Source: a virus
Taxonomy: Duplodnaviria > Caudoviricetes
Reading direction: 5' to 3' (one strand)
IMG/VR virus record: IMGVR_UViG_3300036715_003055
Span: 1-52,545 of that record
Length of the DNA stretch: 52,545 nt
The position numbers were made by a program, and so were the translations under genes. How positions within the stretch are numbered: position 1 is the stretch's first letter; each line of letters starts with the position of its first letter. Below the pieces are notes generated by a model. It made no database searches. It was not told the DNA's origin and worked only from the letters and a program-made list of their open reading frames with translations. This document shows, one piece after another, positions 7,277-46,024 of this stretch.

Positions 7277-8668
7277 ATGAATTTTTTTATATCAAATATT
7301 TGTACTATAACTGGAATTGAAGATCCAGTAATAATGGCTACAATAAAAAAAAGACTGACAATAGCAAATCCATTTTACAACAAAAAAACTGAACTTGGAC
7401 TTAGCACTTGGAATGTTCCAACCACATTAACCTTTTATGACCAAATAGCAGAATCCACAATTCAAATACCGGTTGGAGCTTTACCGGACATTATATCCTA
7501 CTTAAAAGAAAATTACAAACCTATACAACAATCTGACATTCATGATTTAAGATTAGATACTTCTGATATAGGAAAAATTTATTTTAAAGACGTTAAGTTT
7601 ACTGGCACTTTACGAGACTATCAACAAGAAATAGTAAATTGTGTGCTAGATAAAACAATAGGAGTTGTAGAAGCTATGACGGGGTCTGGTAAAACAATAA
7701 CATTCGTTAAAATTATTGTTGATAGAAAAATACCGACTTTAATTTTAGTTAATACATTAGAATTAGCAAACCAAATAATAGATTCATTTATAACATTTAC
7801 TAATTTAAAAAAAGAAGATATTGGTTATATCGGAAATGGTAAATTTATATTAAAGCCGATTACAGTAGCACTGCATCAAACTATGCATAAGCTAGGTAAA
7901 TCGGAATTTGCATTAATTAATTCTTTATTTGGTCAAGTTATTGCAGATGAAGTCCATATCGTTGCAGCAAAAACTTATTATAAAACTATGACTTCATTAA
8001 AAGCAAAATATAAATTTGGATTTAGTGCAACACCGAAGCGTGATGATGGATTAACAAATGTAATCTATTTTGCTACCGGACCTAAGATTCATACAGTTCC
8101 TTTAGAAAAATTAAAAGATGTATTAATTGTGCCTTCTTACAAACAAATTTTAACTGACTATTACTTTCCATTAATGGACTCTAAAGAATACATAATGTTG
8201 TTAGATGACTTATCTATTGATAAAGACAGGAACCAAAAAATAGCCCAAGAAGCTCTAACAAATTATAATGATAAATATGTATGTTTATTATGTAATAGAA
8301 TAAATCAAATAATAGAATTAAAAAATTTGTTAGGAGAAGAAGCAGTAATAATACATTCAAAAACAAAAAAGAAAGAGAGACTTTTAGCAATGGAGCAATT
8401 AAAAAATAAACAAAAAAGATATGTAATATCTACCTTCGGGTTATTTAGTACAGGCATAGATATTCCTCATCTAGACACTGTTTTTATTTGTGCTCCTATC
8501 AGAAGCGAAGTAAAATTAAGACAAACTGCAGGACGAATAATGCGTTTGGCTGAAGATAAAGGGTCAGCAACAATAGTGGATTTTGTAGATTATAAAATTG
8601 AATTGCTAAGAAAACAAGCAAACAAAAGAAAATATATTTTTAACCAAATAATGACAGGCACATTATGA
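7277..8668 (+). CDS. Superfamily 2 DNA helicase (UvsW/ResIII-like)
   Basis: LRDYQ, AMTGSGKT (Walker A), DEVH, SAT, QTAGRIMR motifs. Confidence 0.9.
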   Translation: MNFFISNICTITGIEDPVIMATIKKRLTIANPFYNKKTELGLSTWNVPTTLTFYDQIAESTIQIPVGALPDIISYLKENYKPIQQSDIHDLRLDTSDIGKIYFKDVKFTGTLRDYQQEIVNCVLDKTIGVVEAMTGSGKTITFVKIIVDRKIPTLILVNTLELANQIIDSFITFTNLKKEDIGYIGNGKFILKPITVALHQTMHKLGKSEFALINSLFGQVIADEVHIVAAKTYYKTMTSLKAKYKFGFSATPKRDDGLTNVIYFATGPKIHTVPLEKLKDVLIVPSYKQILTDYYFPLMDSKEYIMLLDDLSIDKDRNQKIAQEALTNYNDKYVCLLCNRINQIIELKNLLGEEAVIIHSKTKKKERLLAMEQLKNKQKRYVISTFGLFSTGIDIPHLDTVFICAPIRSEVKLRQTAGRIMRLAEDKGSATIVDFVDYKIELLRKQANKRKYIFNQIMTGTL

Positions 8669-9183
8669 TAAAAAAAATAAATATATATCCTAATCCAATT
8701 TTATTTAAAAAAGCAAGACAATGTCAATTAATAAAAATTATAGAAAATGAAGATAACATTGGAATTCCTCAAGCAAAAAAATGGGAACAAGAAGTAATTG
8801 ATGCAACACAAAATTTACTAGATACAGCAAATAGTTTAAGTGAAAAAGCTGTAGGATTATCTTGTTCACAAATTTGGGATGACCCTGATAAAGATCCATT
8901 AGCTATTTTTGTAATTAAATTAAAAACTAATGATAATTATGTATGGAAGGAATTTATTAATCCTAAAATTATAACTAGTGGACATACAGTAAAAGTTAAA
9001 GAAGAGTGTTTAAGTGTACCAGATATGGAGATAATTAAAAAACGCGAAATCAATGTTACAATAACATATCAAACATTAGAAGATGTAACTCCATTAACAA
9101 TAAAACTATACGGTAAATATTCATTTTTACCAGTTATTATTCAACATGAATATGATCATTTAAATGGGAAATTAATAATATGA
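8665..9183 (+). CDS. def: Peptide deformylase
   Basis: AVGLSCSQI, EECLSVP and QHEYDHLNG match the three PDF motifs (first two divergent). Confidence 0.88.
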   Translation: MIKKINIYPNPILFKKARQCQLIKIIENEDNIGIPQAKKWEQEVIDATQNLLDTANSLSEKAVGLSCSQIWDDPDKDPLAIFVIKLKTNDNYVWKEFINPKIITSGHTVKVKEECLSVPDMEIIKKREINVTITYQTLEDVTPLTIKLYGKYSFLPVIIQHEYDHLNGKLII

Positions 9184-9515
9184 GTACTTCGTCTTATAAT
9201 TTTTCATTTTCAAATAAAGAAAAAAAAGAAGAAGAAAGTGAGGATCCGCGTAAAGGATTACGTATAGCAAAGTGTTGTGGTAACTGTAAATTTTTTTGGT
9301 ATGAACATGCTAAAGAAAGAAGAGGTTATTGTAAGTTACCATATACAAAAGATAAAATATCTAGTATAGATAAAGAATTTGCACTTTCTACTTTTCGTAA
9401 AACCCATACTACTGCGGTTTGTGATTTGCATAGATTTAGAAGCAAAAAAAATAGTATAGAGCGCTTAGAGAGATGGATGGGAATTAAATTTGATATAAAT
9501 GGAAATCAAACGTAA
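9180..9515 (+). CDS. Small Cys-rich putative Zn-binding protein
   Basis: CCGNC...GYC...VCDLH; coupled by ATGA/TAATG overlaps. Confidence 0.6.
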   Translation: MSTSSYNFSFSNKEKKEEESEDPRKGLRIAKCCGNCKFFWYEHAKERRGYCKLPYTKDKISSIDKEFALSTFRKTHTTAVCDLHRFRSKKNSIERLERWMGIKFDINGNQT

Positions 9516-10984
9516 TGGAAAAACAAATTATAAAATTTCTTCAATCCCATAAAATAAATGGGTTATTTTGTGGTGGCACAGCGCGAAACATATATTTAGG
9601 CATTGACAATAGACATTATGATATATCTGTCGATAAAAATATTTCTGAATTAAGAGATATATTTAAAAATGGTAGTGAAGTCGATGATTATAATGTATGT
9701 GTAAAAATATTTTATAAAGATATTCCAATTATATTATATCCTAGAAAAAAAGTAGAACTAATAAACACATATTATAATTATAGTTTTACTAATAAAATAA
9801 GTGAAGATGTACAATCTAGAGATTTTACAATAAATGGGTTATATTACAATCCATTAACAAATGAATGGATTGATATGATTAACGCTATTAAAGATATTGA
9901 TAATAAAATTATTCGATTTATAAATAACGGTGAAACAAAAATTTTAGAGTCAAAAGTTAGAATATTACGTGCCCCGGTATTTGCAACTGTTTTAGGCAAT
10001 TCTTGGAAAATAGATGCTAAAACAATAGAGGATATATATAATAATAGATTAAAGTTAATGACAGTAAACCCAAAACAAATATATCCTGAACTTAACAAAA
10101 TTTTTAAATATGCAGAAAATCCTAGTAAATTTTTCAAATTTTTATCTTTTATTGGCATATTAGATGACTTCTTCCCCGAATTAAAAAGATGTATAGGAAT
10201 AGAACAATCTAATAAAGCCGCAAATTTGGATTTATTTAATCACATTATGTTAACACTTGACGCGATTCAACTAAATAAACAAAATACTGATATATTAAGA
10301 ATTGCTGCACTTTTACATGATATAGGTAAACCTTATACCGAAGTAAAAACTGATACAGGAATTCATTTTTACAATCATGAAAATGTTGGAGCTTATCTAT
10401 CAGAAAGAATACTTTATCGATGGGGATTCCCAAAAAATATTATTTCAAAAATAATGATATTAATTTCCAATCATTTATTTGATGCATCCCCAAATAAAAC
10501 TTCTCAATCAATTAAAAAACTTATAAATAAAGTTGGTGCCGAAAATATTCATGATTTAATAGAACTTAGAATAGCGGATAGACTTGGTACAGGTAGAAAA
10601 GATATAAGTATGAAAAATATTTATAAACTTCGCGATAAAGTTAACGCAGTGCTAACAGAAATAGATCCTAATAAATTTAAATTGCAAATTGATGATAATG
10701 AAATTATTAAAATTTGTAACTTAACAAAACCAGGTATTAGTGAATTACAAAAAATTAAAGAATATTTAACATTTATGGTAATCACTAATAGTTTAGTTAA
10801 TAAAGAATCTTCAATAAAAAAGATACTTACCAAATTAAATAAAATACAGTGCCCTTTAGGTATGTATCATTTTTATAATGTACAATTAAGTATTAAAAAT
10901 GGCAATGCACAATTATTCCCAGATGGTCGTTTAGAATGTGGAATATTTTGTAATTTCCTATGTAATAAAACGAGAAAAAAATAA
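9515..10984 (+). CDS. cca: Class II tRNA nucleotidyltransferase (CCA/poly(A) polymerase family) with HD domain
   Basis: GGTARN, RDFTINGLYY, RILR, and HD domain H...AALLHDIGKP...FYNHE. Catalytic DxD reads H-Y-D. Confidence 0.78.
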   Translation: MEKQIIKFLQSHKINGLFCGGTARNIYLGIDNRHYDISVDKNISELRDIFKNGSEVDDYNVCVKIFYKDIPIILYPRKKVELINTYYNYSFTNKISEDVQSRDFTINGLYYNPLTNEWIDMINAIKDIDNKIIRFINNGETKILESKVRILRAPVFATVLGNSWKIDAKTIEDIYNNRLKLMTVNPKQIYPELNKIFKYAENPSKFFKFLSFIGILDDFFPELKRCIGIEQSNKAANLDLFNHIMLTLDAIQLNKQNTDILRIAALLHDIGKPYTEVKTDTGIHFYNHENVGAYLSERILYRWGFPKNIISKIMILISNHLFDASPNKTSQSIKKLINKVGAENIHDLIELRIADRLGTGRKDISMKNIYKLRDKVNAVLTEIDPNKFKLQIDDNEIIKICNLTKPGISELQKIKEYLTFMVITNSLVNKESSIKKILTKLNKIQCPLGMYHFYNVQLSIKNGNAQLFPDGRLECGIFCNFLCNKTRKK

Positions 10985-19180: not shown

Positions 19181-20176
19181 ATGTATTTTTATTTTAAAAA
19201 AGATGACGGTAAACAAAAAAATAGACAATCAAAAGATTTTGGTGATATATCTAATATACAAACAGATGTAAATATTGACTCAGAAAAATGGGATAAAATA
19301 TTTCATAACTGGGACCATCCAGAAAAATGTGCCGGTAAACAAAAACCACAAGGTTGTAAAATTTGTGATAAATTAATGAATATGGAGTATGTGGTGAATA
19401 ATAATAAAATTTATAATACAACAATATTAATTGTTGGTGACATACACGGACAGCTAAATAGAGTAAAAGAACTAGCTGAACAATTTAAAATAAACACAGT
19501 AATTAGTACAGGCGATTTAGAAATTTATACGTCATTAGAAGAAATATCATCTGATAAAAAAGCTATAAAAGATAGAAGTGATGACTTATTAAAAAATTAT
19601 ACTTCTATAAATAAAAATATACTTCAGCCATTATCATTTAAATTATTTTGTGTTAAAGGAAATCATGATGTATATTCAACTGAATCAATTAAACAATTAG
19701 AAACCTACAATATTTTTTATCCAGAAAATGGTAAATCGGGAGAGCTAATAACTGTTAATGGGGCCAATATTTTAGTATTTGGTGGAATTTTTTCTAAAAA
19801 TAATTTTAACGCTTATCCTGAAGAATTAGAAGATACAAAGAAAAAATATTTTACCCAAAATGAAATTAATTCTATTTTGGAAAAAATGAATAACACTAAT
19901 ATTGATTTGCTAATAACTCATCAAGTAGCGGCAAACATAATAGAAAACACTGGACATATAAAACATGAAGAAGGCAATAAAAACTTAAATGTACTTTTAG
20001 ATAATTTAAATCCAAATATTTACATACACGGTCATCATCATATAACATATAAGAAAAATTATATTAATAGTAATAATAAAATTATTAATGTATTCGGGCT
20101 TGGTAATTTAAGTTCTAACCCCAATTCATATATATTATATGAAACCCTGTCTAAAAAGGTTATCCAATCATGTTAG
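19181..20176 (+). CDS. Calcineurin-like metallophosphoesterase with N-terminal extension
   Basis: GDIHG, TGD, KGNHD, THQ, HGHHH. Start at ATG 19181 after GAGG. Confidence 0.85.
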   Translation: MYFYFKKDDGKQKNRQSKDFGDISNIQTDVNIDSEKWDKIFHNWDHPEKCAGKQKPQGCKICDKLMNMEYVVNNNKIYNTTILIVGDIHGQLNRVKELAEQFKINTVISTGDLEIYTSLEEISSDKKAIKDRSDDLLKNYTSINKNILQPLSFKLFCVKGNHDVYSTESIKQLETYNIFYPENGKSGELITVNGANILVFGGIFSKNNFNAYPEELEDTKKKYFTQNEINSILEKMNNTNIDLLITHQVAANIIENTGHIKHEEGNKNLNVLLDNLNPNIYIHGHHHITYKKNYINSNNKIINVFGLGNLSSNPNSYILYETLSKKVIQSC

Positions 20177-20967
20177 ATAAATATTTAAAGGACATAAGAA
20201 AATTCGACCCATTAACAAAAAAAGAAGAGCTAGAATTATTTGAAAAAGCTAAAAATGGTGACAAATTGGCTAGAGAAAAAATAATAAATTGTAATTTACG
20301 CTTTGTTGTTCAAATAGCCAGGGAATACCAAAATCAAGGGTTAGCTTTAGAAGAATTAATTCAAGAAGGTAATTTAGGTCTGTTAAAGGCCTTTGATAAA
20401 TTTGATCTAAGTAAAGGACATAAATTTATTACTTATGCAGTTTGGTGGATACGTCAATCAATTACAAACGCTATTCATGAGCATTCACGAAGCATAAGAT
20501 TACCCTTAAATAAAATAACTAATGTCACAAAAATATCAAAACTAAAAGATAATTTAGAACAACAAGAGGCCAGACAAATTGGATATACTGAAATAAGCGA
20601 ATATTTAGAAGATCCATCCATTGTTGAGGATTTACAATTTAATTATACAATTATAAATTTAGATAAACAACAGACAGAAAATGAAAAAGACTTGAATGAT
20701 ATTATACCTGACGAAGATAATGATATTTTTGCTAGTCTTGAGCCAATAAAAGATGAACTTAAATTGATACTAAATGAATTTAATGAAAGAGAAATTAAAA
20801 TACTAAAAATGTATTTTGGAATAGACCATGTAAGACGATACACATTAAAAGAAATTGGCTATGAATTGAAATTAACTAAAGAACGAATAAGACAAATAAA
20901 AGATAAAATAATTGATAAACTACAAAAAAGAAAACGTTCTGAAAAACTAAGAGGTTATATAAAATGA
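20170..20967 (+). CDS. sigma70-family RNA polymerase sigma factor (RpoD-like, no region 1.1)
   Basis: LDKYL, NLRFVV..A..YQNQGL, EGNLGL, YAVWWIRQSI, RLPLN, TLKEIG...ERIRQI. Confidence 0.92.
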   Translation: MLDKYLKDIRKFDPLTKKEELELFEKAKNGDKLAREKIINCNLRFVVQIAREYQNQGLALEELIQEGNLGLLKAFDKFDLSKGHKFITYAVWWIRQSITNAIHEHSRSIRLPLNKITNVTKISKLKDNLEQQEARQIGYTEISEYLEDPSIVEDLQFNYTIINLDKQQTENEKDLNDIIPDEDNDIFASLEPIKDELKLILNEFNEREIKILKMYFGIDHVRRYTLKEIGYELKLTKERIRQIKDKIIDKLQKRKRSEKLRGYIK

Positions 20968-24385: not shown

Positions 24386-26032
24386 TTAGAATGTAAGTTT
24401 TATTTTAATATAATTAACAGGATATTTAGGTAGCACATTAACTTCAGCTTCTAAAACATCTTGTTGTAATTCATTTTGGGTTACTGATAAAACTTTTAAG
24501 TCCTCAATAACACCCATGCGAACCAAAAATCTACCTACATTGAATAAAATAGAATCAACTAAGTCTATAAATGCTGGAGTTATATTATATTTTCCAATGT
24601 ACGGCTTCAAGCTTTTTCTCATAAATTTAGCTGTATAATCTAAAGCTTTTACAACACTGAGTTCACGTTTAGCAACTGAAGTAATATCAGTTGACATTTG
24701 GTGGCGGCAATAAATTGGACCAAATTCAGAATCTTGTGTCATAATCCATGTACCACCTTCAGCCATTATATTTAATTCAGCTTCACTAAATATATCTTGA
24801 GATCCGTATGTTTTTGCTAAACCACTTCCAGCTACATTTGTTAATGGTTGTTCAGGTGTTGTTCCAATAACTTGACCACATGCTTGAGCTGTATAATAAT
24901 ATCCTGGAACTGGAGCATAAACAGTAACCATTCCTGATGCACCTGCCCAATTATTAGCCATTAAATTTGTCCATACTGATTCTGTAATGTCTTGCCCAGC
25001 TTTATATTTTATACCACCGACTACTGTATCAGCCACAAATTTAGCATAAGGCCCATAAGTTGTAAAATCAATCGTAGTAGTATAATTAAAAGATTTATTT
25101 ATCCAAGACGGTTTAATAGTACTAATATGGCGGGTTTCAACAACAAAAGCTCTATCAGGGTGTATTGAATATACACGTTGAGACCCAATAGCTGAATTAG
25201 CATCACGTACAGCTGCTGCAATTGTAGCACGCTGTGTAGAAGTTAGAGTTGTCGGGTTGTCTGGATAAGAAATTACATTATTTACAAATGCAATTCTTTC
25301 TTTTTTATTTTCTGGCAAAGATTGTGTTGAACAATGAGCCTTTAAATCAGATGCTGTAATCTTATGCGTAGCCACACCTATTGCAAATATATCTTTTAAA
25401 GACAAAACATCATTTATAGCATTAATAGCATTTGATCCGGGATCGGCTGTCCATTCTACACCAAGTGCATTAAATTTTGTTCCAGAATTATTCATAGCAA
25501 TGTTAACTCCAAATGCCAATGGATTCCAAGAAACTGCTTCACCCAATAATTCTTCAATTTCAGTTGAAGATCCAATTACTTTAAATCCAACAGCATTAGG
25601 ATTTTTAGCTCTAAATCCTACCTTTACTAAAAATTCTGATGTACCTCCGGTTTCAGTCATACCACTACAAGTAATAGTATTTGTTGTTTCATTAACTGAA
25701 AAATCAGTTCCATATTTTAGATGCATTGTTTTACCTGTACTAGGGCCAGATACACCTAAAAGATCAACAATAACTAATTCACCGTCTCCAGCAACTATAT
25801 CATTATAAACTGGATTTATATCAGAAAGAGGAATGGTAACAGGGTTACCGTTAGAAACAAATTTTGTTCCCCAAACTGAATTATATAGTTGACTACCAGA
25901 ATCTTCCCAAGTAGGATCTTGCCACCAATATGCATTACCAACAATAACACCTTCTAAATCAGGTGTATTTAATACAGCTGATTTAGTTTTTTGTACTTGG
26001 CTTACCTCAACCCCTGGTTTATTATATGCCAT
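24386..26032 (-). CDS. Contractile tail sheath protein
   Basis: N-terminal YNKPGVEV; C-terminal RELSVVKALDY...YPVNYIKI typical of sheaths. Start ATG 26032 (SD GGAGGA). Confidence 0.85.
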   Translation of the reverse strand: MAYNKPGVEVSQVQKTKSAVLNTPDLEGVIVGNAYWWQDPTWEDSGSQLYNSVWGTKFVSNGNPVTIPLSDINPVYNDIVAGDGELVIVDLLGVSGPSTGKTMHLKYGTDFSVNETTNTITCSGMTETGGTSEFLVKVGFRAKNPNAVGFKVIGSSTEIEELLGEAVSWNPLAFGVNIAMNNSGTKFNALGVEWTADPGSNAINAINDVLSLKDIFAIGVATHKITASDLKAHCSTQSLPENKKERIAFVNNVISYPDNPTTLTSTQRATIAAAVRDANSAIGSQRVYSIHPDRAFVVETRHISTIKPSWINKSFNYTTTIDFTTYGPYAKFVADTVVGGIKYKAGQDITESVWTNLMANNWAGASGMVTVYAPVPGYYYTAQACGQVIGTTPEQPLTNVAGSGLAKTYGSQDIFSEAELNIMAEGGTWIMTQDSEFGPIYCRHQMSTDITSVAKRELSVVKALDYTAKFMRKSLKPYIGKYNITPAFIDLVDSILFNVGRFLVRMGVIEDLKVLSVTQNELQQDVLEAEVNVLPKYPVNYIKIKLTF

Positions 26033-26066
26033 GTGCAATATCCTCCAATAATATTAAATATTTTTT

Positions 26067-26834
26067 TTATAAAGATTGTTGTTCGTTATTTTTTTTCTTA
26101 AACGACTTTAAAATATCAACACCCATTCCAACTTCAGCCGCAGGTCTTGCAACTGTCCATAATGCTGTATCTTTTAACCCGCGTCCTATTCTGTTGGGTA
26201 TTCCGTCTGAATTTGATTGTGTCCCGTTTTCTGTTTTATTTGAAGGAAATAATGCAGATTGAATACCAAACCCAACTGGAGTTACTGACATTGCCCCAAC
26301 TTGAGCTAAAGCTCGCTTTTTTACTATTCCTTTGGCGCCATCTGCACTAGTCCCTAATATTGGTCTATCAGGAAGACCAAATTTACCTTTTAAAAATTGT
26401 TTACCATCTTTAGTTATTATATTTTTATTTGCGTCTAAATCAACAGTTTTAAATCTTGCATCTCTAAGTTGGTCTTGTACAGTTGTCCAAATATTTCCAC
26501 CAAAATTTTTTGCATTTTGAAAAAGTGTATTTTCTGTTGAAATTCCAGAACCTAAATTTCGAAAAGCTGATACTGAATCTCCAATACCTTTTTGAAGCCA
26601 TCCTGTATTTTTTAATTCGTTACCAACGGTCATAGTTCCATTATTTAATGTTTGGAAAGCTGGTGTTTTATATTTTTCTAAAGTATCTAATGCCCCCACA
26701 AAACCTTTTGCTTTATAAGCATCAGATACTTCAGACCCCCATGAAAGTAGTTTAGGTATAAAATCCGTTAGACCGGCGGTTTTTTCAAGTTCGCGAAGTT
26801 CGCTTACAAAGGCTTTAAATTGTATTTCGTTCAA
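26067..26834 (-). CDS. Putative internal head/ejection protein with K-x-A leader
   Basis: AFVSELRELEKTAG leader, followed by a Gly/Lys-rich body. Confidence 0.55.
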   Translation of the reverse strand: MNEIQFKAFVSELRELEKTAGLTDFIPKLLSWGSEVSDAYKAKGFVGALDTLEKYKTPAFQTLNNGTMTVGNELKNTGWLQKGIGDSVSAFRNLGSGISTENTLFQNAKNFGGNIWTTVQDQLRDARFKTVDLDANKNIITKDGKQFLKGKFGLPDRPILGTSADGAKGIVKKRALAQVGAMSVTPVGFGIQSALFPSNKTENGTQSNSDGIPNRIGRGLKDTALWTVARPAAEVGMGVDILKSFKKKNNEQQSL

Positions 26835-27682
26835 TTTATTGTTATCTCCAAATCTCTTAATATATCATAATAACCTAATATTTTTCCTCCATTTGGTATT
26901 GAAAAAATAGTAGGATCTGATGTTGCTATTAGTTCTACTCCTGTTACAGATTGTAAAGTTATAGCATCTGTATAATCAATTGTTATTGGGATATTTGCAT
27001 CTTTATTAAAATTTATTTTTATTGCTGTACCATTTGAAACAACTTCAAAATCTAAAGTTTCAAAAATTTCTTGGTTATTATAAAAACCATATACATTATT
27101 AAATCTTTCTGCTTTTACAATAAATTCTTGTGTTAAAAAATTTACTGTTACAGGAACTCCAATTAATCTTATTTCAGAATCAGTTCTTAAAATTGTTTCC
27201 CCGCCAATTGACATTCCTGTAAATTTAAATATTCCAGCTTTTCTTAATTCATTTGTCATTCCAGTTAATGCTACAAATATATCATTTGCAATCATCTCCG
27301 CCTGCACCCCATTTTTTGATAAAGCATTAAAAGTCACAGATCCATACAATAAATCTGTTCTAGATTCTTTTGCAAATAAATTAGCATTAAGCGGCCCACC
27401 ATGTAATGGTATAACTTCATTTTGTAAATTAACAGAATTTAACCCACTCTGCCCTCTAATAACATAACCCCAACTAACTGGATTTCGTGACAAAATTAAA
27501 GCTGGTTTTTTAGTAGCAACCCCAAGATCTATTGCATTTCTATCAGCTATTATAATTTTTGTTACTCTAACATCTTTATCCCATTTGAACTTAAATGACT
27601 CTGCAAAGTAAGCTTGAGCAAAAGTTAAAAAAACTTTTTTTATTTCTAATGGGATATTTTTATAGTTGGTTATTGAATTCAT
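26831..27682 (-). CDS. Putative tail terminator/completion protein
   Basis: Lies between neck and sheath genes; 283 aa. Confidence 0.5.
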   Translation of the reverse strand: MNSITNYKNIPLEIKKVFLTFAQAYFAESFKFKWDKDVRVTKIIIADRNAIDLGVATKKPALILSRNPVSWGYVIRGQSGLNSVNLQNEVIPLHGGPLNANLFAKESRTDLLYGSVTFNALSKNGVQAEMIANDIFVALTGMTNELRKAGIFKFTGMSIGGETILRTDSEIRLIGVPVTVNFLTQEFIVKAERFNNVYGFYNNQEIFETLDFEVVSNGTAIKINFNKDANIPITIDYTDAITLQSVTGVELIATSDPTIFSIPNGGKILGYYDILRDLEITIN

Positions 27683-27818
27683 ATATAAATTCTTCTAAAT
27701 TTTTCGTCTCTAATAAATCCTCAACTCCTTCTAAATCCCATTCAAATAGTAGTTGGTTATCAAGCTCTTCTTTTATTATATCTAATTCTTCTGGATCATC
27801 TATTCTATATACTTGCAT
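27660..27818 (-). CDS. Small highly acidic protein (52 aa)
   Basis: Not in track. MQVYRIDDPEELDIIKEELDNQLLFEWDLEGVEDLLETKNLEEFIYEFNNQL; starts 5 nt after a -10 hexamer. Confidence 0.6.
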   Translation of the reverse strand: MQVYRIDDPEELDIIKEELDNQLLFEWDLEGVEDLLETKNLEEFIYEFNNQL

Positions 27819-27823
27819 AACTA

Positions 27824-27852
27824 AATATACTTTTTATTCGATAAATAGTCAA
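27824..27852 (-). promoter_or_regulatory. sigma70-like promoter, probably leaderless
   Basis: TTGACT-N17-TATATT-N5-ATG(27818). Confidence 0.6.
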
Positions 27853-27853
27853 G

Positions 27854-28984
27854 TTAACTAAACTGTTTAATGCCTATAAAATGCGTAATATTTCCTTGTT
27901 CATCCTTAATAGGAGTAATTATTAGTTTTGTATTTATAATCCCGCCAGATTTTGTTTTATTTGTAATTGAATCAAACCACACTTCTCCTGATAATATTGT
28001 TTTCCACATTAACTCATAATATTCTTTAGAGTGTAAACCAGACTTTAATATTCTAGGGTTTTCACCAATTATTTCATCCATTGTATATCCAAGCATTTCA
28101 CAAAAAGCATTATTTGCCCAAATAATTGTACCATCTTTATCTGTAATTAACATTCCATTTTTTGCATCTAAAATTGCAGCGGAATGTAATTTTATTAATT
28201 CTTCTGACTGCTTTCTTTTTGTAATGTCAGTTATTATTCCAATTTTTTCTATTGGAACACCATCTTCATCTCTTCTGAAGACTCGTTCTCTTGCTAAAAA
28301 CCATCTATATGTACCATCTTTTATTTTTAACCTAAGTTCAAACTCATATACATCATTAGATGAGCTATTTTTTAATATCGAATTTTGCTTATTTATTTTT
28401 GGTATATCTTCAGGATGAATAATGTTATTAAACAACTTATCCTTCATATTTTTTAAATCTTCTTGAGAATACCCAAGAATATCTAAACCGGGTTCATTTA
28501 TAAATATATTGCTATTAGACCTTAAATCCTGCACATATATTATATTAGGACTTGTTGCAAGTAAATTATCAATAAACTTATTTTTATTAATTAGTATTCG
28601 TTGAGTATTTAATAATTCAGTTATATCATTCAAATGAATTATATAATAAGTATTAAATACATTTACTTTAGTAACATTTATTTCTAAATAATAATTAGAT
28701 AAAACACAGGCACTTGAAAACTTATAGCTTTCTGAATTTTCTAAAATCATTCCTAAATTAGGTGGTACATTTTTTAAAAAAGAAAAAATTTTTATAGTAT
28801 ACGCTTGTTCTGTATTTATATTTAAATATGTTAAAGCAGCTTTATTAATAGTAATTACTTTAAAATTTTTATCAAGAATTATTTTACCGACTTGAGAAAA
28901 TTCAAAAGATGTTTTATACAGCATCAACTCAGATGATATATTTTCATAAAGTTTTTTATATGAGCTATTTTCTAAATTTAACAT
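27854..28984 (-). CDS. Multi-PAS/PAC sensor protein with no output domain
   Basis: ILGYSQEDL...IIHPED...DGTYRWF...DITKRK and ANNAFCEMLGY...IGENPRILKSG...MWKTILSGEVW. Ends right after the last PAS. Confidence 0.85.
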   Translation of the reverse strand: MLNLENSSYKKLYENISSELMLYKTSFEFSQVGKIILDKNFKVITINKAALTYLNINTEQAYTIKIFSFLKNVPPNLGMILENSESYKFSSACVLSNYYLEINVTKVNVFNTYYIIHLNDITELLNTQRILINKNKFIDNLLATSPNIIYVQDLRSNSNIFINEPGLDILGYSQEDLKNMKDKLFNNIIHPEDIPKINKQNSILKNSSSNDVYEFELRLKIKDGTYRWFLARERVFRRDEDGVPIEKIGIITDITKRKQSEELIKLHSAAILDAKNGMLITDKDGTIIWANNAFCEMLGYTMDEIIGENPRILKSGLHSKEYYELMWKTILSGEVWFDSITNKTKSGGIINTKLIITPIKDEQGNITHFIGIKQFS

Positions 28985-29769
28985 TATGATAAATCCTTGT
29001 TATTAAATTTATACGATTTTAACTCACCATTAAGTTCTTTAAGTAATTTAATACTATCTATAGTAATACCAAACTTTAACATAAATAAAATAGAAGTTAA
29101 AATAAAAAATAACGCTTCTTCATAATTATCTTCGGCTCTATAAAAGGCTATAGTATCAATGTCACTTAAAATTAACTGAATTCTTCCTTGATATAAATCT
29201 CTGATTTTATCTATGACGATTTGTGGAACTCCAAGTTTACTCCATCTTTCTTCATATGCTCTTATTATATTAACAATTAATTGCCTACATTGATTTCTAA
29301 AATCAACAGGAGATTTAAATTCATAATTAGCTGATAAAAATTTTCTAGCATACTCAGCAAAAATATTGTATTGTTCTGTTAACATTAATCTAAACATTTC
29401 TGTACGACCTTCATTACCGAAAGTTATATTTTTTATATTAAAAAGAGATTGCTCTAATTCAGAAAATAAAGGATGTGTTTCATCTAATATTGGTTTATAT
29501 GTTTTAGTTTTTCTATCATACCAATAATATTTTAATAAAAAAGTAATAAATGCAATAAAAGATGGTATTAAAGTTTCCCAATTTATGTAAACATCTTTAT
29601 CAGCTTCTCCTACTTTTACCATTTGTTTATCAATATTTGATAATTTATTTATAACATCTTTTGACATAGAATTATATGAATATATAGATGCAAAAAACCA
29701 AACAGGTCCTGCAATAGCTAACGCAAAGAGAAAATAATTAATTGATCTCAATATTTTTGGTTTAAACAT
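28984..29769 (-). CDS. Two-TM membrane protein in the lysis cassette (holin/antiholin-like)
   Basis: Hydrophobic segments YFLFALAIAGPVWFF and LIPSFIAFITFLL, then a soluble helical domain. Follows the amidase. Confidence 0.5.
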   Translation of the reverse strand: MFKPKILRSINYFLFALAIAGPVWFFASIYSYNSMSKDVINKLSNIDKQMVKVGEADKDVYINWETLIPSFIAFITFLLKYYWYDRKTKTYKPILDETHPLFSELEQSLFNIKNITFGNEGRTEMFRLMLTEQYNIFAEYARKFLSANYEFKSPVDFRNQCRQLIVNIIRAYEERWSKLGVPQIVIDKIRDLYQGRIQLILSDIDTIAFYRAEDNYEEALFFILTSILFMLKFGITIDSIKLLKELNGELKSYKFNNKDLS

Positions 29770-29781
29770 CTAACGGTCCCC

Positions 29782-30393
29782 TTATAATAAATTTTGTAAA
29801 GACAATAATGGAAAAGCTGGTGATATATCTGATTTATCCTCTCTAACATTACAATGTGATAAAATTCCTGTATAATTTAATGCATAATTTGTATTAAAAT
29901 CATAGCTTTCTAAAACTTTCTTTTCAATATTAAATTTAGGAATTAAATATTTTAATAATTCTACTACTGCATTTATTTGTTGGTCCGTATATGCTGCAAA
30001 ATATTGATACCCCCTCCACGGTTTTTCCAATGTTACGACTTTTCCGACATATTTGGACTTACCATCGTTCCACATAAAATTTCCATCAGATATTTTTGTG
30101 AGCCCACCTTCATTTACTATTTCTATTCCTATTGATTTTTTATCAGCAAATCCTTTAGAAGGGCCATATTTTAACCCCAAATGAAAACTCCAATATTTTG
30201 GGTCAAATGTTTGGTATATTGTACCATCTTTATCAATAACATAAGCTACTGCAACTGGTCTTCCATCTTGGTCCCACCAAGATATAGACCCCTTTGCACT
30301 TGAAGATACTGTATGATGCAAATATATTTGTGTTTTTTTAATTTCTTCTTTAAAGAAATTATCACTTTTGATTGGATTATTTATAATATTCAT
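29782..30393 (-). CDS. N-acetylmuramoyl-L-alanine amidase (Amidase_2) endolysin
   Basis: IYLHHT, YVIDKDG, WSFHLG, SIGIEIVN, SHCNV..DKSD. Confidence 0.88.
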   Translation of the reverse strand: MNIINNPIKSDNFFKEEIKKTQIYLHHTVSSSAKGSISWWDQDGRPVAVAYVIDKDGTIYQTFDPKYWSFHLGLKYGPSKGFADKKSIGIEIVNEGGLTKISDGNFMWNDGKSKYVGKVVTLEKPWRGYQYFAAYTDQQINAVVELLKYLIPKFNIEKKVLESYDFNTNYALNYTGILSHCNVREDKSDISPAFPLLSLQNLL

Positions 30394-31214
30394 TGGTATT
30401 TAAATTTTTCTAAAGGTAGATTATAATCTACCGGAAGTGAATAAACGATATCGTCATGTTCAATCAAAGCTAATTGTGCTCTTTGTTCAATTAGATATCC
30501 TAATTTTTCAAGTTTTTGAACTTGAACAACTACCCATCTGGAACCAGAATCATCCACAATAACATCTTTTTCGCGTAGTGGTGGGTAATTTAACATTTCT
30601 AATAGCACATCACTTGGCTTCCATTCACCAAACATCATTATTTGATTTCGTTCAGGTGAAGGAGTAATCATTGCTAAAAAAGGGGTTGGAGGTAAATATC
30701 CAGTAGACCAGCCTGTACCTTGACACTCACTGCAATTTGGGTCGGTGGCCCTAAACAACACATCATCCCAACATTTAGAACAATGTGCACCCCAAGTTTT
30801 TCTCTTTAATAAAAAAAATTTTCTACCTACAAATTTTTCTAATACTAATCTTTTTTGTCTTAAAATTTCTTTAGTACTCAAATCTATTGACAAATACTTA
30901 AAGTATATAGCATGAGGAGTAAGAATAGTTACTTCATTTGTATTTATATTTTTTACAGAAAGTTTATAATACCATATTCTACCAGGTGTTGACAATCCAT
31001 CTAAACTTGTATCAGTATAATGTGAAATTTCTAGAGCTAAATCTGTAGCAATTTGTTCGAACCCATCTAAACTATTTGGAAAACCAGTAGACTCAGATCT
31101 ATAAATAGATAATTTATAGTCGTTTAAATTTTCATCTATAACCTCTAATTCCCATTCTATATAAATTGAATTAGTGTTTATTTGATTTATAGCAGCTCTT
31201 TTTAAATTTAACAT
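30390..31214 (-). CDS. Putative neck/head-closure protein with Zn finger
   Basis: FN3-like N-terminus, CSKC...CSECQGTG; two genes downstream of the major capsid gene. Confidence 0.55.
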   Translation of the reverse strand: MLNLKRAAINQINTNSIYIEWELEVIDENLNDYKLSIYRSESTGFPNSLDGFEQIATDLALEISHYTDTSLDGLSTPGRIWYYKLSVKNINTNEVTILTPHAIYFKYLSIDLSTKEILRQKRLVLEKFVGRKFFLLKRKTWGAHCSKCWDDVLFRATDPNCSECQGTGWSTGYLPPTPFLAMITPSPERNQIMMFGEWKPSDVLLEMLNYPPLREKDVIVDDSGSRWVVVQVQKLEKLGYLIEQRAQLALIEHDDIVYSLPVDYNLPLEKFKYQ

Positions 31215-31805: not shown

Positions 31806-32726
31806 TTAATCTGTGCCTGTAAAAGTAAATTTTGCGCATGATTTAGTATTACCGATACCCATACCAACAGTTTCATAAGCTGCGAAAGTAATGATATTTT
31901 TCTTCTTTTCAATCCAGAATTTAGTATCATTTAAAATTAAAAATTGACCGAAGAAATCTTGAGATGTAAATGCATATATTTTATTTTGTAACAAAGATAC
32001 TTTGTTTGAAACAACTAATCTACGACCAAATAATGTAGAGTAAGTATAACCATTTACAATAACTTCAGAACCTACAGCATCACCGACTGTTGTTGCATTA
32101 TACAAGAAAAGTCTGTTATACATTGTAGAATCCATCAATAAAACTTCAGCTTTTAATTCATTTCCGTCCAATGCATCAAATAAACGTTTGATGTCATTTT
32201 TCTTTATAGTACCATCTGATGCATAAGTTCCTGTTAAAGCAGTATTATTTCCATTACCAACTTCAACATTAATAGCTTGATCTACTTGTTGTATGAATGC
32301 AGTATCTTCTATTTTTTGAATGTCAAGAACAGAATTTTTTTCAATTACTTCTGTTAAAGGCATTTCATAAGCTAATAATTCTTCTTCAGTTTTTTGGAAA
32401 TCAGAACTCGAAATCATGAAGAAAGGAATTTCAAATCTTTCACCAACAACGTATTCAGCATTTGGGTTACCACGGAAGTTAACAAGCATTGCTTTTGAAT
32501 CTGGTTCAATATCAACGATTTTGACTAAACCATCATGATTAACACTTCTTTGTAATTCTTGCTTTGTAACATATTGTGGTTGAACAATTTTACGAGCAAA
32601 AGAAACCTCACGAAGTTTTTGACGAATAAATGCCGAACCTTCCTCAGCAATTTTCATAATACCATCTTGAGTTCCTAATTTTTGAACAAAAAGTTCATTT
32701 AATTGTCTTGCACTTAAATCAGCCAT
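31806..32726 (-). CDS. Major capsid protein (HK97/encapsulin-like fold)
   Basis: About 306 aa, last gene of the protease-scaffold-decoration run, followed by a terminator. IRQKLREVSFARKI; SD GGAGGA. Confidence 0.8.
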   Translation of the reverse strand: MADLSARQLNELFVQKLGTQDGIMKIAEEGSAFIRQKLREVSFARKIVQPQYVTKQELQRSVNHDGLVKIVDIEPDSKAMLVNFRGNPNAEYVVGERFEIPFFMISSSDFQKTEEELLAYEMPLTEVIEKNSVLDIQKIEDTAFIQQVDQAINVEVGNGNNTALTGTYASDGTIKKNDIKRLFDALDGNELKAEVLLMDSTMYNRLFLYNATTVGDAVGSEVIVNGYTYSTLFGRRLVVSNKVSLLQNKIYAFTSQDFFGQFLILNDTKFWIEKKKNIITFAAYETVGMGIGNTKSCAKFTFTGTD

Positions 32727-32743
32727 TATTATATCCTCCAAAA

Positions 32744-33542: not shown

Positions 33543-34148
33543 TTATTCGTTTGAAAGTCTTGTTAAAAATGCATCAGCCATAATTGTTCCTAATTCGTGA
33601 GCTTCAGCTACTTTTTGTACTGCTTCTTCTTGTTCCTCTTCTAAAGCTTGTTCTATTATTTCTTGATCATTTTCAATTAAAGCTTCAGCTACTTTAACTA
33701 CATCTTCTTCAGTAAAGTTACCTTCACCTACTTCTTCAGCTAAAGCTTCTACAGCTAGTTCAGCATATTTATCTAATAGTTCTTCAGCTTCTGCTATCAT
33801 AGCCTGATCGTTTTCAATTAAAGCTTCAGCTACTTTAACTACATCTTCTTCAGTAAAGTTACCTTCACCTACTTCTTCAGCTAAAGCTTCTACAGCTAGT
33901 TCAGCATATTTATCTAATGCTTCTTGTTCCTCAATTAAGGCTTGATCTGCTTCAATATATGCGCTTGCTACTTTAACTACATCTTCTTCAGTAAAGTTAC
34001 CTTCACCTACTTCTTCAGTTAAATTTTCTACAGCTAATTCAGCGTATTTATTTAATACTTCTTGTTCATCAGAAGATAATTCTGAATCATTTGCTGCAGC
34101 TTGTTTTTGTAACATATCTTCATAAACTGATAATAAATTTAAAGCCAT
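33543..34148 (-). CDS. Acidic scaffold protein with three internal repeats
   Basis: 3x KYAELAVE.L.EEVGEGNFTEEDVVKVA, DNA periods 138 and 141 bp. Confidence 0.7.
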   Translation of the reverse strand: MALNLLSVYEDMLQKQAAANDSELSSDEQEVLNKYAELAVENLTEEVGEGNFTEEDVVKVASAYIEADQALIEEQEALDKYAELAVEALAEEVGEGNFTEEDVVKVAEALIENDQAMIAEAEELLDKYAELAVEALAEEVGEGNFTEEDVVKVAEALIENDQEIIEQALEEEQEEAVQKVAEAHELGTIMADAFLTRLSNE

Positions 34149-44418: not shown

Positions 44419-45714
44419 TTATAAAATATTAGCAGCTAGTTCTGCTAATTTAGAACGTTCGCTTTTTTCTAGATTAATATGGGAAAAAATTTCTTGTCCT
44501 TTCATTTTATGAATTAAATAAGTTAATCCATTTGATCTAGAATCTAAATAAGGAGAATCAATTTGATAAATATCACCAGTAAATACAATTTTTGTTCCTT
44601 GTCCAGCTCTAGTAATTATTGTTTTTACCTCGTGAGGAGTTAAGTTTTGTGCTTCATCAATAATAAAAAATACACGTGGGATAGAACGCCCACGTATGAA
44701 AGGTAAAGGTGTAATTTCAATTTTCTTTTGTTCGTTCATTTGTTCAAATAATTTATCATTATTAAATTCACCTTTTATTACTTTTAAATTATCATATAAG
44801 GGTTGCATATATGGATCTATTTTTTCGTTTGTATCACCAGGTAAAAAACCAATTTCTTTATTACTTAAAGGTATTATTGGTCTCGCTAACAATATTTGGT
44901 TATAAAGTTTACGCTGATGTATCGCTGCAGCAAGGCTTAATATTGTTTTTCCTGAACCTGGTGTACCGGTAAGAGTTACTAATGAACAGTTAGGATTTAA
45001 TAAAGCATCTAAAGCAAAAAACTGTTCCAAGTTTCTGCTTTTTAAACCAGCTGTCATTTCTTCTCTTACTTTCTCAAATAAATTAGTTAATGGATTATAT
45101 CTTACCATAGCTGTTTGTTTTCCGTTTCGTAATAAAAAATATTCATTACTAATTGGAGTATCTATTATTTTTGATAAATCTACTCCATCGGGATATTTAT
45201 AAACGAGATCGATTACTTCTCCTGGTAAGTTAGATATAATTCTATATCCTTTATACAACTCATTAACATTTTTGACTTTTCCAGTTTCATAATCTTGAGC
45301 ACAAATACCTAATGCTTTAGCTTTCATTCGTAAATTAATATCTTTTGTAACTAATATATAATTTGCATCAGCCTGTTTTGTTTTATTATAGGCAAAGTTT
45401 AAAATTATATTATCATTCACAGAGGAGTCAAGGACTTCTAAAGCAGCAGGCTTATTAAAACCATTTACAGCAATAGATAAACAACCTAAACCATTTCCTA
45501 AAGAAACATCTTTGGTAGGGGAATTTTCAAATAACAAATCTAAATCACGTATAAAATTACGTGCATTTATATTTATTACATCATTCCCCTTTTTAAATTT
45601 ATCTAATTCTTCAAGAACTGTAATTGGGATAATAATATCGTTATCTTGAAAATTGTATATTGAATTACAATCATACAAAATAACGTTTGTGTCTAAAATG
45701 AATATTTTTTTCAT
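44419..45714 (-). CDS. phoH: PIN-PhoH protein (PhoH2/YlaK type)
   Basis: PIN domain LDTNV...EELD...ND...TKD; PhoH domain GTPGSGKT, IGFLPG, RGRS, IIDEAQN, GD..QID. Confidence 0.92.
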   Translation of the reverse strand: MKKIFILDTNVILYDCNSIYNFQDNDIIIPITVLEELDKFKKGNDVININARNFIRDLDLLFENSPTKDVSLGNGLGCLSIAVNGFNKPAALEVLDSSVNDNIILNFAYNKTKQADANYILVTKDINLRMKAKALGICAQDYETGKVKNVNELYKGYRIISNLPGEVIDLVYKYPDGVDLSKIIDTPISNEYFLLRNGKQTAMVRYNPLTNLFEKVREEMTAGLKSRNLEQFFALDALLNPNCSLVTLTGTPGSGKTILSLAAAIHQRKLYNQILLARPIIPLSNKEIGFLPGDTNEKIDPYMQPLYDNLKVIKGEFNNDKLFEQMNEQKKIEITPLPFIRGRSIPRVFFIIDEAQNLTPHEVKTIITRAGQGTKIVFTGDIYQIDSPYLDSRSNGLTYLIHKMKGQEIFSHINLEKSERSKLAELAANIL

Positions 45715-45828: not shown

Positions 45829-45990
45829 TTAATATAATAATCTGCGAATGCGGGTTGGTGGTTTATTTGCCAGTTCTCTTAATTTCCTTGCCAATGCAAA
45901 TACTTCTGCAAATGTGTATCTTTGCATCGGTGTAGGTTGCGCAACTTTTATTAACGCATTTTTGAATCCAATTAAAGTATTTATCGTCAT
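45829..45990 (-). CDS. Small basic protein with K-x-A leader (53 aa)
   Basis: Not in track. MTINTLIGFKNALIKVAQPTPMQRYTFAEVFALARKLRELANKPPTRIRRLLY; has its own promoter. Confidence 0.6.
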   Translation of the reverse strand: MTINTLIGFKNALIKVAQPTPMQRYTFAEVFALARKLRELANKPPTRIRRLLY

Positions 45991-46024
45991 AATATTTATA
46001 TGTTTTAAAATAATAGTCTAATAC

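Follow-up and report, generated by a model that had tools for sequence, protein, structure and literature searches.

A membrane-anchored protein and a translationally coupled PAS-only protein with a flavin-type domain beside an amidase gene in an uncultured phage

A three-gene cassette and its PAS-only protein

The window analysed here is the whole of the IMG/VR virus record IMGVR_UViG_3300036715_003055 (52,545 bases, classed linear, ~26% complete). Three open reading frames (ORFs) follow one another on its minus strand: a gene for a 203-aa cell-wall amidase of the Amidase_2 type (29782..30393; PF01510, phrog_1794), a gene for a 261-aa membrane-anchored protein of the family phrog_18926 (28984..29769), and a gene for a 376-aa protein built of PAS domains only (27854..28984). 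The amidase start overlaps the stop of the upstream gene, which encodes a Zn-ribbon protein, and the amidase and membrane genes are separated by a spacer of 12 nt. The stop of the membrane gene overlaps the start of the PAS gene by one base in the motif TAATG (28982..28986, minus strand). The original prediction had given the same order of amidase, membrane protein and TAATG-coupled PAS gene, and the overlap is read directly from the sequence. Very probably, the cassette holds a conserved and selected module, in which a membrane-anchored protein with a cytoplasmic helical bundle is paired with a coupled PAS-only protein carrying a flavin-type domain, next to an amidase that lacks a signal, in a late-operon cargo slot.

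The PAS-only protein consists of an N-terminal cap helix and three PAS domains (PAS-A, PAS-B and PAS-C), as determined from Pfam, TIGR00229 and an AlphaFold2 model. PAS-B (residues 148-254; 28223..28543, minus strand) is of the PAS_3 type, with a PF08447 match at residues 160-251 (e-value 1.3e-26, 93.1 bits, cut-off 25.6). PAS-C (residues 276-376; 27857..28159, minus strand) matches PAS_9 (PF13426) at residues 276-372 with 98.7 bits (cut-off 27) and carries the motif GENPRILKSG. The NCBIfam model TIGR00229 matches the protein with an e-value of 4.7e-35 (120.5 bits, cut-off 22.9). PAS-A (residues 30-121; 28622..28897, minus strand) is a divergent PAS fold recognised from the AlphaFold2 model and from weak profile matches (PAS_8, e-value 0.021, and the PAS regions of PhoR/WalK). 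In the model three PAS folds, at residues 30-120, 148-253 and 277-375, lie behind the N-terminal helix. All three segments have the PAS-type order of strands and helices; the per-residue model confidence (pLDDT) is 83-90 over residues 30-120, and the last segment is of lower confidence. Searches of the 376-aa protein against Pfam and NCBIfam matched only PAS families, and no output domain (HisKA/HATPase, GGDEF, EAL, helix-turn-helix) was found. The protein is therefore the stand-alone multi-PAS protein without kinase, GGDEF or helix-turn-helix output that had been proposed from the sequence, its third PAS fold coming from the AlphaFold2 model.

A search of 5.8 billion proteins with the PAS protein returned 308 matches. 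Five of these are full-length PAS-only proteins of 373-377 aa (99, 97, 96, 64 and 51% identity), which end at the same residue and have no breaks. PAS-C (70-71% identity) and the linker preceding it are the parts best conserved in the two distant orthologues; PAS-A is conserved least, at 34-52%, with 34% in the orthologue P0005. Cellular proteins match at best over a single domain, with 42-52% identity, and those closest to PAS-B and PAS-C are histidine kinases, SpoIIE phosphatases and GGDEF proteins. Other phage PAS proteins are also found in databases, among them small "PAS domain" proteins from uncultured phages and, in Agrobacterium phage Atu_ph07, a multi-sensor kinase. PAS-protein and family alignments and single proteins, searched against viral contigs, found no further loci; neither did the membrane-protein alignment when searched against genome contigs. 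Shorter forms of the protein were sought with PAS residues 1-140 and none were found.

The cassette is under purifying selection. Forty of the 64 population variants were listed, and 30 of these 40 fall in the three cassette genes. Among them the ratio of synonymous to non-synonymous variants is 9:3 in the PAS gene, 2:1 in the membrane gene and 13:2 in the amidase gene, with no indels seen. One 3,600-nt contig from other public runs bridges positions 26800-30144 with 18 differences and no indels. Since full-length orthologues exist and the variants are mostly synonymous, the PAS gene is not a chance ORF. It is likewise not the non-conserved, truncated host fragment that the original prediction had named as the finding that would overturn it, as the gene is conserved at full length.

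Among solved structures, PAS-C matches MmoS best (3ewk, e-value 1.5e-29), then NifL (2gj3, 1.4e-11) and after these LOV domains. The motif GENPRILKSG spans residues 307-316. Pro310 stands at the position of the LOV cysteine in all five orthologues, and the adduct-forming cysteine of the LOV motif GxNCRFLQ is absent from PAS-C in all five. Six residues (T281, P310, K314, W327, N342 and K373) are invariant in the five orthologues. Trp327 on F-alpha aligns with a tryptophan of NifL and MmoS, and Asn342 aligns with the asparagine of the NRRKD stretch in both proteins. For the NifL/MmoS cluster (cluster 4), Xing et al. 2023 (PMC10468136) describe the F-alpha tryptophan as the primary determinant of flavin adenine dinucleotide (FAD) binding, together with the asparagine. 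The flavin-site residues given for MmoS are T103, H132, N164 and R195, of which N164 contacts the flavin (PMC9668731); at these positions the alignment places Thr281, Pro310, Asn342 and Lys373 of PAS-C, respectively. PAS-C thus appears to be a NifL/MmoS-type, non-LOV domain, and it is likely to bind flavin, because its best matches are MmoS and NifL and because Trp327 and Asn342 are kept. This agrees with the earlier assignment of the last PAS domain, on the basis of GENPRILKSG, to the NifL type rather than to LOV.

The membrane protein, its family and the amidase

The membrane-anchored protein of the window matches no Pfam family. Its match to phrog_18926 (e-value 6.1e-10) covers residues 98-256. 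Hydrophobic peaks lie at residues 13-31 and 60-78, and a third (219-237) falls within the modelled helical bundle. There are three positive residues at the N-terminal end, a neutral loop, and further positive residues after the second segment. This charge pattern puts the protein, as a prediction, in an N-in/C-in arrangement with two N-terminal transmembrane segments, both termini and the bundle being cytoplasmic. The bundle measures ~170 aa and is confidently modelled by AlphaFold2 over residues 100-245 (pLDDT 79-94 over residues 100-230).

Orthologues of the membrane protein (P0122-P0127) are 39-61% identical to it. A family profile searched against 1.84 billion representatives found 425 clusters at an e-value of 1e-3 or below and 119 at 1e-10 or below, and most cluster members are 200-270 aa long. 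In 60 members H99, F102, R122, P182, D238, N247 and G248 are nearly invariant, and all seven lie in the cytoplasmic domain. The profile of these 60 members finds exactly one family member per related or jumbo-phage locus examined, and none in the related locus L005. Cultured phages with a family member are the Xanthomonas phages XacN1 and Xoo-sp13 and the Stenotrophomonas phages RAS14 and CM1. phrog_18926 is an uncharacterised family occurring in jumbo phages; its cultured members, including XacN1 ORF269 (BBA65417.1), Xoo-sp13_254 and RAS14 WAX21692, are all annotated as hypothetical, and membership gives no function.

Fold searches with the membrane-protein model gave no lead. Foldseek against the PDB found nothing at an e-value of 0.001 or below, and a search of BFVD found three uncharacterised phage proteins only. 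The best score in the ESM Atlas was 0.88 (a cluster named DUF4760), below the lead level of 0.9. A dynamin stalk was the best VIA-align match, and its Z of 11.7 is below the level of ~13 for helical bundles, so it was set aside. A Fic-like active site (HPLF...GNEGRTEMFR) was also considered and rejected, as no Fic match occurs among the families listed for the 60 members or among the fold-search matches. Fusions of the membrane protein with PAS were sought in the 12 longest of 150 listed family members, none of which had a Pfam PAS match, and the C-terminal extension of the member P0223 did not align to a PAS profile. One BFVD match, A0A8S5T0D4 of Myoviridae sp. ctWb16 (411 aa, e-value 1.8e-4), is 150 aa above the family norm and may be a fused form.

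The amidase matches Amidase_2 (PF01510) with an e-value of 3.6e-15 (56.9 bits, cut-off 26) and phrog_1794, an amidase family, with 1.2e-17; its PHROG matches are to amidase/endolysin families. It is a small single-domain protein in Pfam, with no fusion to a structural protein, and its hydropathy profile has no hydrophobic peak and no signal or membrane segment. His26/His27, His180 and Asp189, the putative Zn ligands, are present and are conserved in the orthologue from the related locus L014. By sequence the protein, of the T7-lysozyme/AmpD type, is a candidate endolysin. Among 51 window ORFs scanned against PHROG, it alone matched lysis families, and the only membrane protein encoded adjoining it is the 261-aa phrog_18926 member. 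Elsewhere in the window, ~15 kb from the amidase and near a PhoH gene, a 57-aa ORF (45848-46021, plus strand) has two hydrophobic segments and is the window's only holin-sized ORF with two such segments.

The cargo slot and the phage that carries it

The amidase, membrane and PAS genes lie inside a structural block, between head/neck genes and tail genes. On the upstream side the border is the conserved 274-aa Zn-ribbon protein (30390..31214, minus strand; phrog_2806) of the head/neck gene block, with homologues at the same position in the loci L003, L005 and L014. The downstream border (26831..27818, minus strand) is formed by two genes, a short acidic ORF of 52 aa (27660-27818) and the gene for a conserved 283-aa protein of the structural module (26831-27682), with homologues in L002, L003, L005 and L014; in all, these border genes precede the tail sheath gene (24386-26038 in the window; phrog_2839). 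The PAS gene and the 52-aa ORF are separated by 35 nt, within which lies the arrangement TTGACT-17 nt-TATATT (27824-27852, minus strand); the region has 41 promoter-like sites, about what chance gives (43.1 in shuffles).

Five loci were compared in this common frame of Zn-ribbon protein, slot, small acidic ORF, 283-aa protein and sheath. In the window the slot holds the amidase, the membrane protein and the three-PAS protein. The L002 contig begins within the membrane gene, and a three-PAS protein (51% identical) is encoded next, again with a one-base overlap. In L003 the membrane gene comes directly after the Zn-ribbon gene and has a 144-aa single PAS-like partner with a four-base overlap; the PAS_9 match of this partner (e-value 1.2e-5, 25.9 bits) is just below the cut-off of 27. 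Its relation to PAS-A is one of position only, as the similarity is weak (BLASTP e-value 0.008 over 42 residues, hhalign 0.0066). L014 and L015, which are 99.97% identical to each other, have an amidase (48% identical to that of the window), a membrane protein (35%; e-value 2.4e-23 to phrog_18926) and then two proteins of 112 aa and 84 aa, the second weakly hydrophobic. The slot of L005 contains a small membrane protein and a LigD_N-like protein, and no family member. The membrane protein is therefore the common element, found in 4/5 loci, and three of the four related loci with the membrane gene have a PAS-type partner behind it with overlapping stop and start. The amidase lies directly upstream of the membrane gene in 2/3 loci whose upstream side is visible (the window and L014). 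Judged from these gene orders, the cassette fills what is evidently a variable cargo slot of a late structural operon.

Several other features of these loci were recorded. In L014 (7873-8462) the 112-aa ORF is without family, and the 84-aa ORF after it is glycine-rich and has a highly charged N-terminus; the two may be lysis accessories. The source record of L014 (66 kb) is classed in IMG/VR as a provirus, and its first 14 kb hold only very long phage-like ORFs (1987, 863 and 1045 aa). In L005 a GIY-YIG endonuclease gene (3992-4333; Pfam e-value 8.4e-07), probably for a homing endonuclease, directly follows the major head protein gene.

Outside this group, the family occurs in jumbo phages of the XacN1/Xoo-sp13/RAS14 type, in the order major capsid protein, GH19 hydrolase, one or two small soluble ORFs and family member. 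The three Xanthomonas and Stenotrophomonas phages are related and count as one lineage. Two classes of hydrolase are thus found near phrog_18926, Amidase_2 in the window and L014 and GH19 in the XacN1-type phages.

By gene content, the window is evidently a fragment of a large uncultured myovirus-like phage. Its PHROG matches include terminase, DNA polymerase and ribonucleotide reductase, as well as the major head protein (31806-32741). Host-like auxiliary genes encode peptide deformylase (8665-9183), tRNA nucleotidyltransferase (9515-10984), an RNA polymerase sigma factor (20170-20967) and PhoH (44419-45714). The G+C content is ~24-37%, and no tRNA genes were found in the 52,545 bases. Among cultured phages the sheath protein has distant relatives only. 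Between the portal/protease-side genes and the head protein lies the gene for a very acidic 201-aa protein (33543-34148, minus strand) with three tandem repeats of ~40 aa (LDKYAELAVE..EEVGEGNFTEEDVVKVAE); it has a scaffold-like look, and shorter relatives are present at the same place in L003, L005 and L014.

Shine-Dalgarno-like motifs precede 28/53 window ORFs compared with 9.7% of random 20-mers, and are strongest ahead of the tube, sheath and neck genes. Given this difference, the host probably uses such motifs. Their frequency argues against a Bacteroidota host, though the nearest phage relatives of the amidase include Tenacibaculum phages. A hot-spring habitat is not claimed, as run X5 (listed share 0.25) gave only 18-37-nt pieces.

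Possible roles of the module

Tentatively, and with somewhat less than even probability, we propose that the cytoplasmic domain of the membrane protein is a docking site for the PAS protein, which would thereby link redox state to a late membrane event; release of the amidase is the likeliest such event. The unit of function would be the two-gene module of the late operon, the membrane-anchored phrog_18926 protein and its translationally coupled cytoplasmic partner. By its predicted topology, the membrane protein has its conserved domain in the cytoplasm, within reach of the PAS protein, which would dock onto it there. Through the redox state of its flavin, the PAS protein would sense the respiratory or energy state of the host cell, and this state would alter the action of the membrane protein late in infection. 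That action would most likely be to release the Amidase_2 enzyme, which has no signal and is encoded immediately upstream, with the PAS protein acting like a cytoplasmic antiholin or lysis-timing regulator. A complex prediction with membrane-protein residues 88-261 and PAS residues 1-140 scored 0.00/0.00 against a mark of 0.32, in a run that covered the N-terminal PAS domain only and for which the controls were not folded, so that the score counts neither for nor against a contact.

A more specific version of this proposal, and a somewhat unlikely one, is a flavin-based "redox antiholin": tethered through the conserved membrane protein, it would read the respiratory state and set the moment at which the amidase passes through the membrane. 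The same membrane-protein platform would then have recruited differing PAS modules, with one PAS fold in L003 and three in the window.

A number of observations weigh against a role in lysis as proposed. In PAS-C, the histidine and the I-beta arginine of the MmoS/Aer subtype are missing, the histidine being replaced by Pro310; at the H132 position of MmoS, NifL itself has a glutamate and not a histidine in the alignment. The membrane protein does not look like known or classical holins, to judge from its sequence: conservation is centred on the cytoplasmic domain (0.41, against 0.33 in the membrane part), the number of membrane segments varies among subfamilies, and the window protein has no Pfam match. 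Holin families were matched among the 60 members only weakly and by one member each (Phage_holin_9, e-value 0.0072; P21 holin S, 0.018). The slot of L003 has the membrane protein and its PAS-like partner without an amidase, and L014 has the amidase and membrane protein without PAS. In three huge uncultured phages (LR745206, LR756502 and LR756500) no recognised hydrolase was found among 11 neighbour proteins scanned, and in two of the three an amidase homologue lies 46-75 kb from the family member; no PAS_9 match was found anywhere in the three records. The PAS protein is therefore an optional add-on, being absent in L014 and in the three huge phages, and the amidase is, on the gene orders seen, not a fixed partner of the membrane protein. 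In XacN1 the GH19 hydrolase whose gene neighbours that of the family member was detected in virions by mass spectrometry (PMC5852040) and may for this reason serve entry rather than lysis. Finally, ~26% of the genome is in hand, and a canonical holin and endolysin may lie elsewhere. The name "lysis cassette" used in the original prediction consequently stands only in part. It is favoured by the adjacency of the amidase in the window and in L014, but not by the loci that lack or displace the amidase, by the virion-borne XacN1 hydrolase or by a membrane protein that does not look like a classical holin.

The same observations give room to a rival that is rather unlikely and still the best of the alternatives. 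The membrane protein and the PAS protein may form a membrane-tethered redox or metabolite sensor for some late process besides lysis, such as superinfection exclusion, membrane remodelling or the assembly of particles at the membrane, with the amidase as a mere neighbour in the cargo slot. The slot cargo differs among relatives, L005 having a small membrane protein and a LigD_N-like protein there, and the pair in L003 does without the amidase. In the huge phages the family sits among baseplate-like and structural genes with no hydrolase nearby, and conservation is centred on the cytoplasmic bundle. However, the adjacency of amidase and membrane genes recurs in L014 at 48% and 35% identity, another class of hydrolase is found near the family in XacN1-type phages, and there is no positive evidence for any of the other processes.

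It is less probable that the amidase is a virion-associated or entry enzyme, which the membrane protein would help to handle (holding it inactive at the membrane, or packaging it) with the PAS protein as an accessory regulator. Endolysins are often carried over into virion preparations, which counts against such a role, and the amidase is small and single-domain, without fusion to a structural protein. All the genes are, on the other hand, inside the structural block between the head/neck and tail genes, and the XacN1 GH19 enzyme beside a family member was found in virions; XacN1 ORF269, the family member itself, goes unmentioned in the main text of that paper (PMC5852040).

An improbable alternative, already raised in the original prediction, is that the PAS protein acts as a decoy, pairing with the PAS domains of host sensor kinases or phosphatases and rewiring host signalling, so that its coupling to the membrane gene would set only its expression level and location. 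PAS domains commonly pair with one another, the closest cellular relatives of PAS-B and PAS-C belong to such signalling proteins, and a PAS-only protein acting purely by binding is known in KidA (PMC9478674). No close cellular donor was found, however, the best matches being confined to a single domain, and a decoy leaves unexplained why two PAS architectures occupy the same coupled position behind the membrane gene. That the PAS gene is a captured, functionless host fragment, as its want of an output domain and its place in a variable slot might suggest, is barely credible in the face of full-length, unbroken orthologues of the same length down to 51% identity, an excess of synonymous variants (9 to 3) and a strongly conserved PAS-C.

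The proposed coupling of redox state to amidase release can be set beside several known systems. Lysis inhibition in phage T4 involves the holin T and the antiholins RI (periplasmic) and RIII (cytoplasmic). As in T4, release of a cytoplasmic cell-wall enzyme would be under the control of a membrane protein that has one globular soluble domain, and a separate small soluble protein would bind this membrane protein and set the timing, the proposed PAS protein being on the cytoplasmic side like RIII. No relation in sequence or fold was found, and the globular domain is periplasmic in T but predicted to be cytoplasmic in the window protein. The partner here has three PAS domains and a probable flavin, and the signal would be redox state rather than superinfection.

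Likeness to NifL and MmoS is confined to PAS-C, which has the same F-alpha tryptophan, asparagine and threonine and a basic residue on the I-beta strand. These are cellular sensors with output domains, whereas the phage protein is viral and has none; PAS-C has Pro310 where MmoS has a histidine and LOV domains a cysteine, and its flavin is predicted. KidA, a cyanobacterial multi-PAS protein without enzymatic output that acts by binding KaiB, is comparable in these respects, but it is a cellular clock component that is not membrane-linked (PMC9478674). VqmA of vibriophage VP882 is likewise a phage-encoded PAS receptor and reads a small-molecule signal for a lysis decision, but its phage is temperate, and VqmA has a DNA-binding output and acts on transcription (PMC8284805); the window protein has no DNA-binding domain and is encoded in a late structural operon. 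The cultured phrog_18926 members share with the window and L014 proteins the same cytoplasmic helical domain (e-value 1.1e-104 for XacN1), are membrane-anchored, and in XacN1, Xoo-sp13 and RAS14 are encoded in a late or structural region near a cell-wall hydrolase gene. They differ in having one membrane segment (two in the window protein), no PAS neighbour and a hydrolase of the GH19 class.

A full-text literature search brought up no description of a phage lysis cassette with a PAS sensor. The authors of the Atu_ph07 study, for their part, looked for lysis genes among all predicted membrane proteins in a widened search (PMC6102473).

The timing of lysis is a central fitness trait of phages. 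To our knowledge, the known antiholins respond to membrane energisation or superinfection and not to a dedicated ligand-sensing domain. If the proposed coupling is true, a flavin PAS sensor linked to a membrane protein next to the lysin lets phages read the redox or energy state of their host directly, and a redox antiholin would amount to a lysis clock controlled by an intracellular sensor domain dedicated to this task. For phrog_18926, a family of 425 clusters, the module would provide a first functional lead, in jumbo phages whose lysis genes are poorly known.

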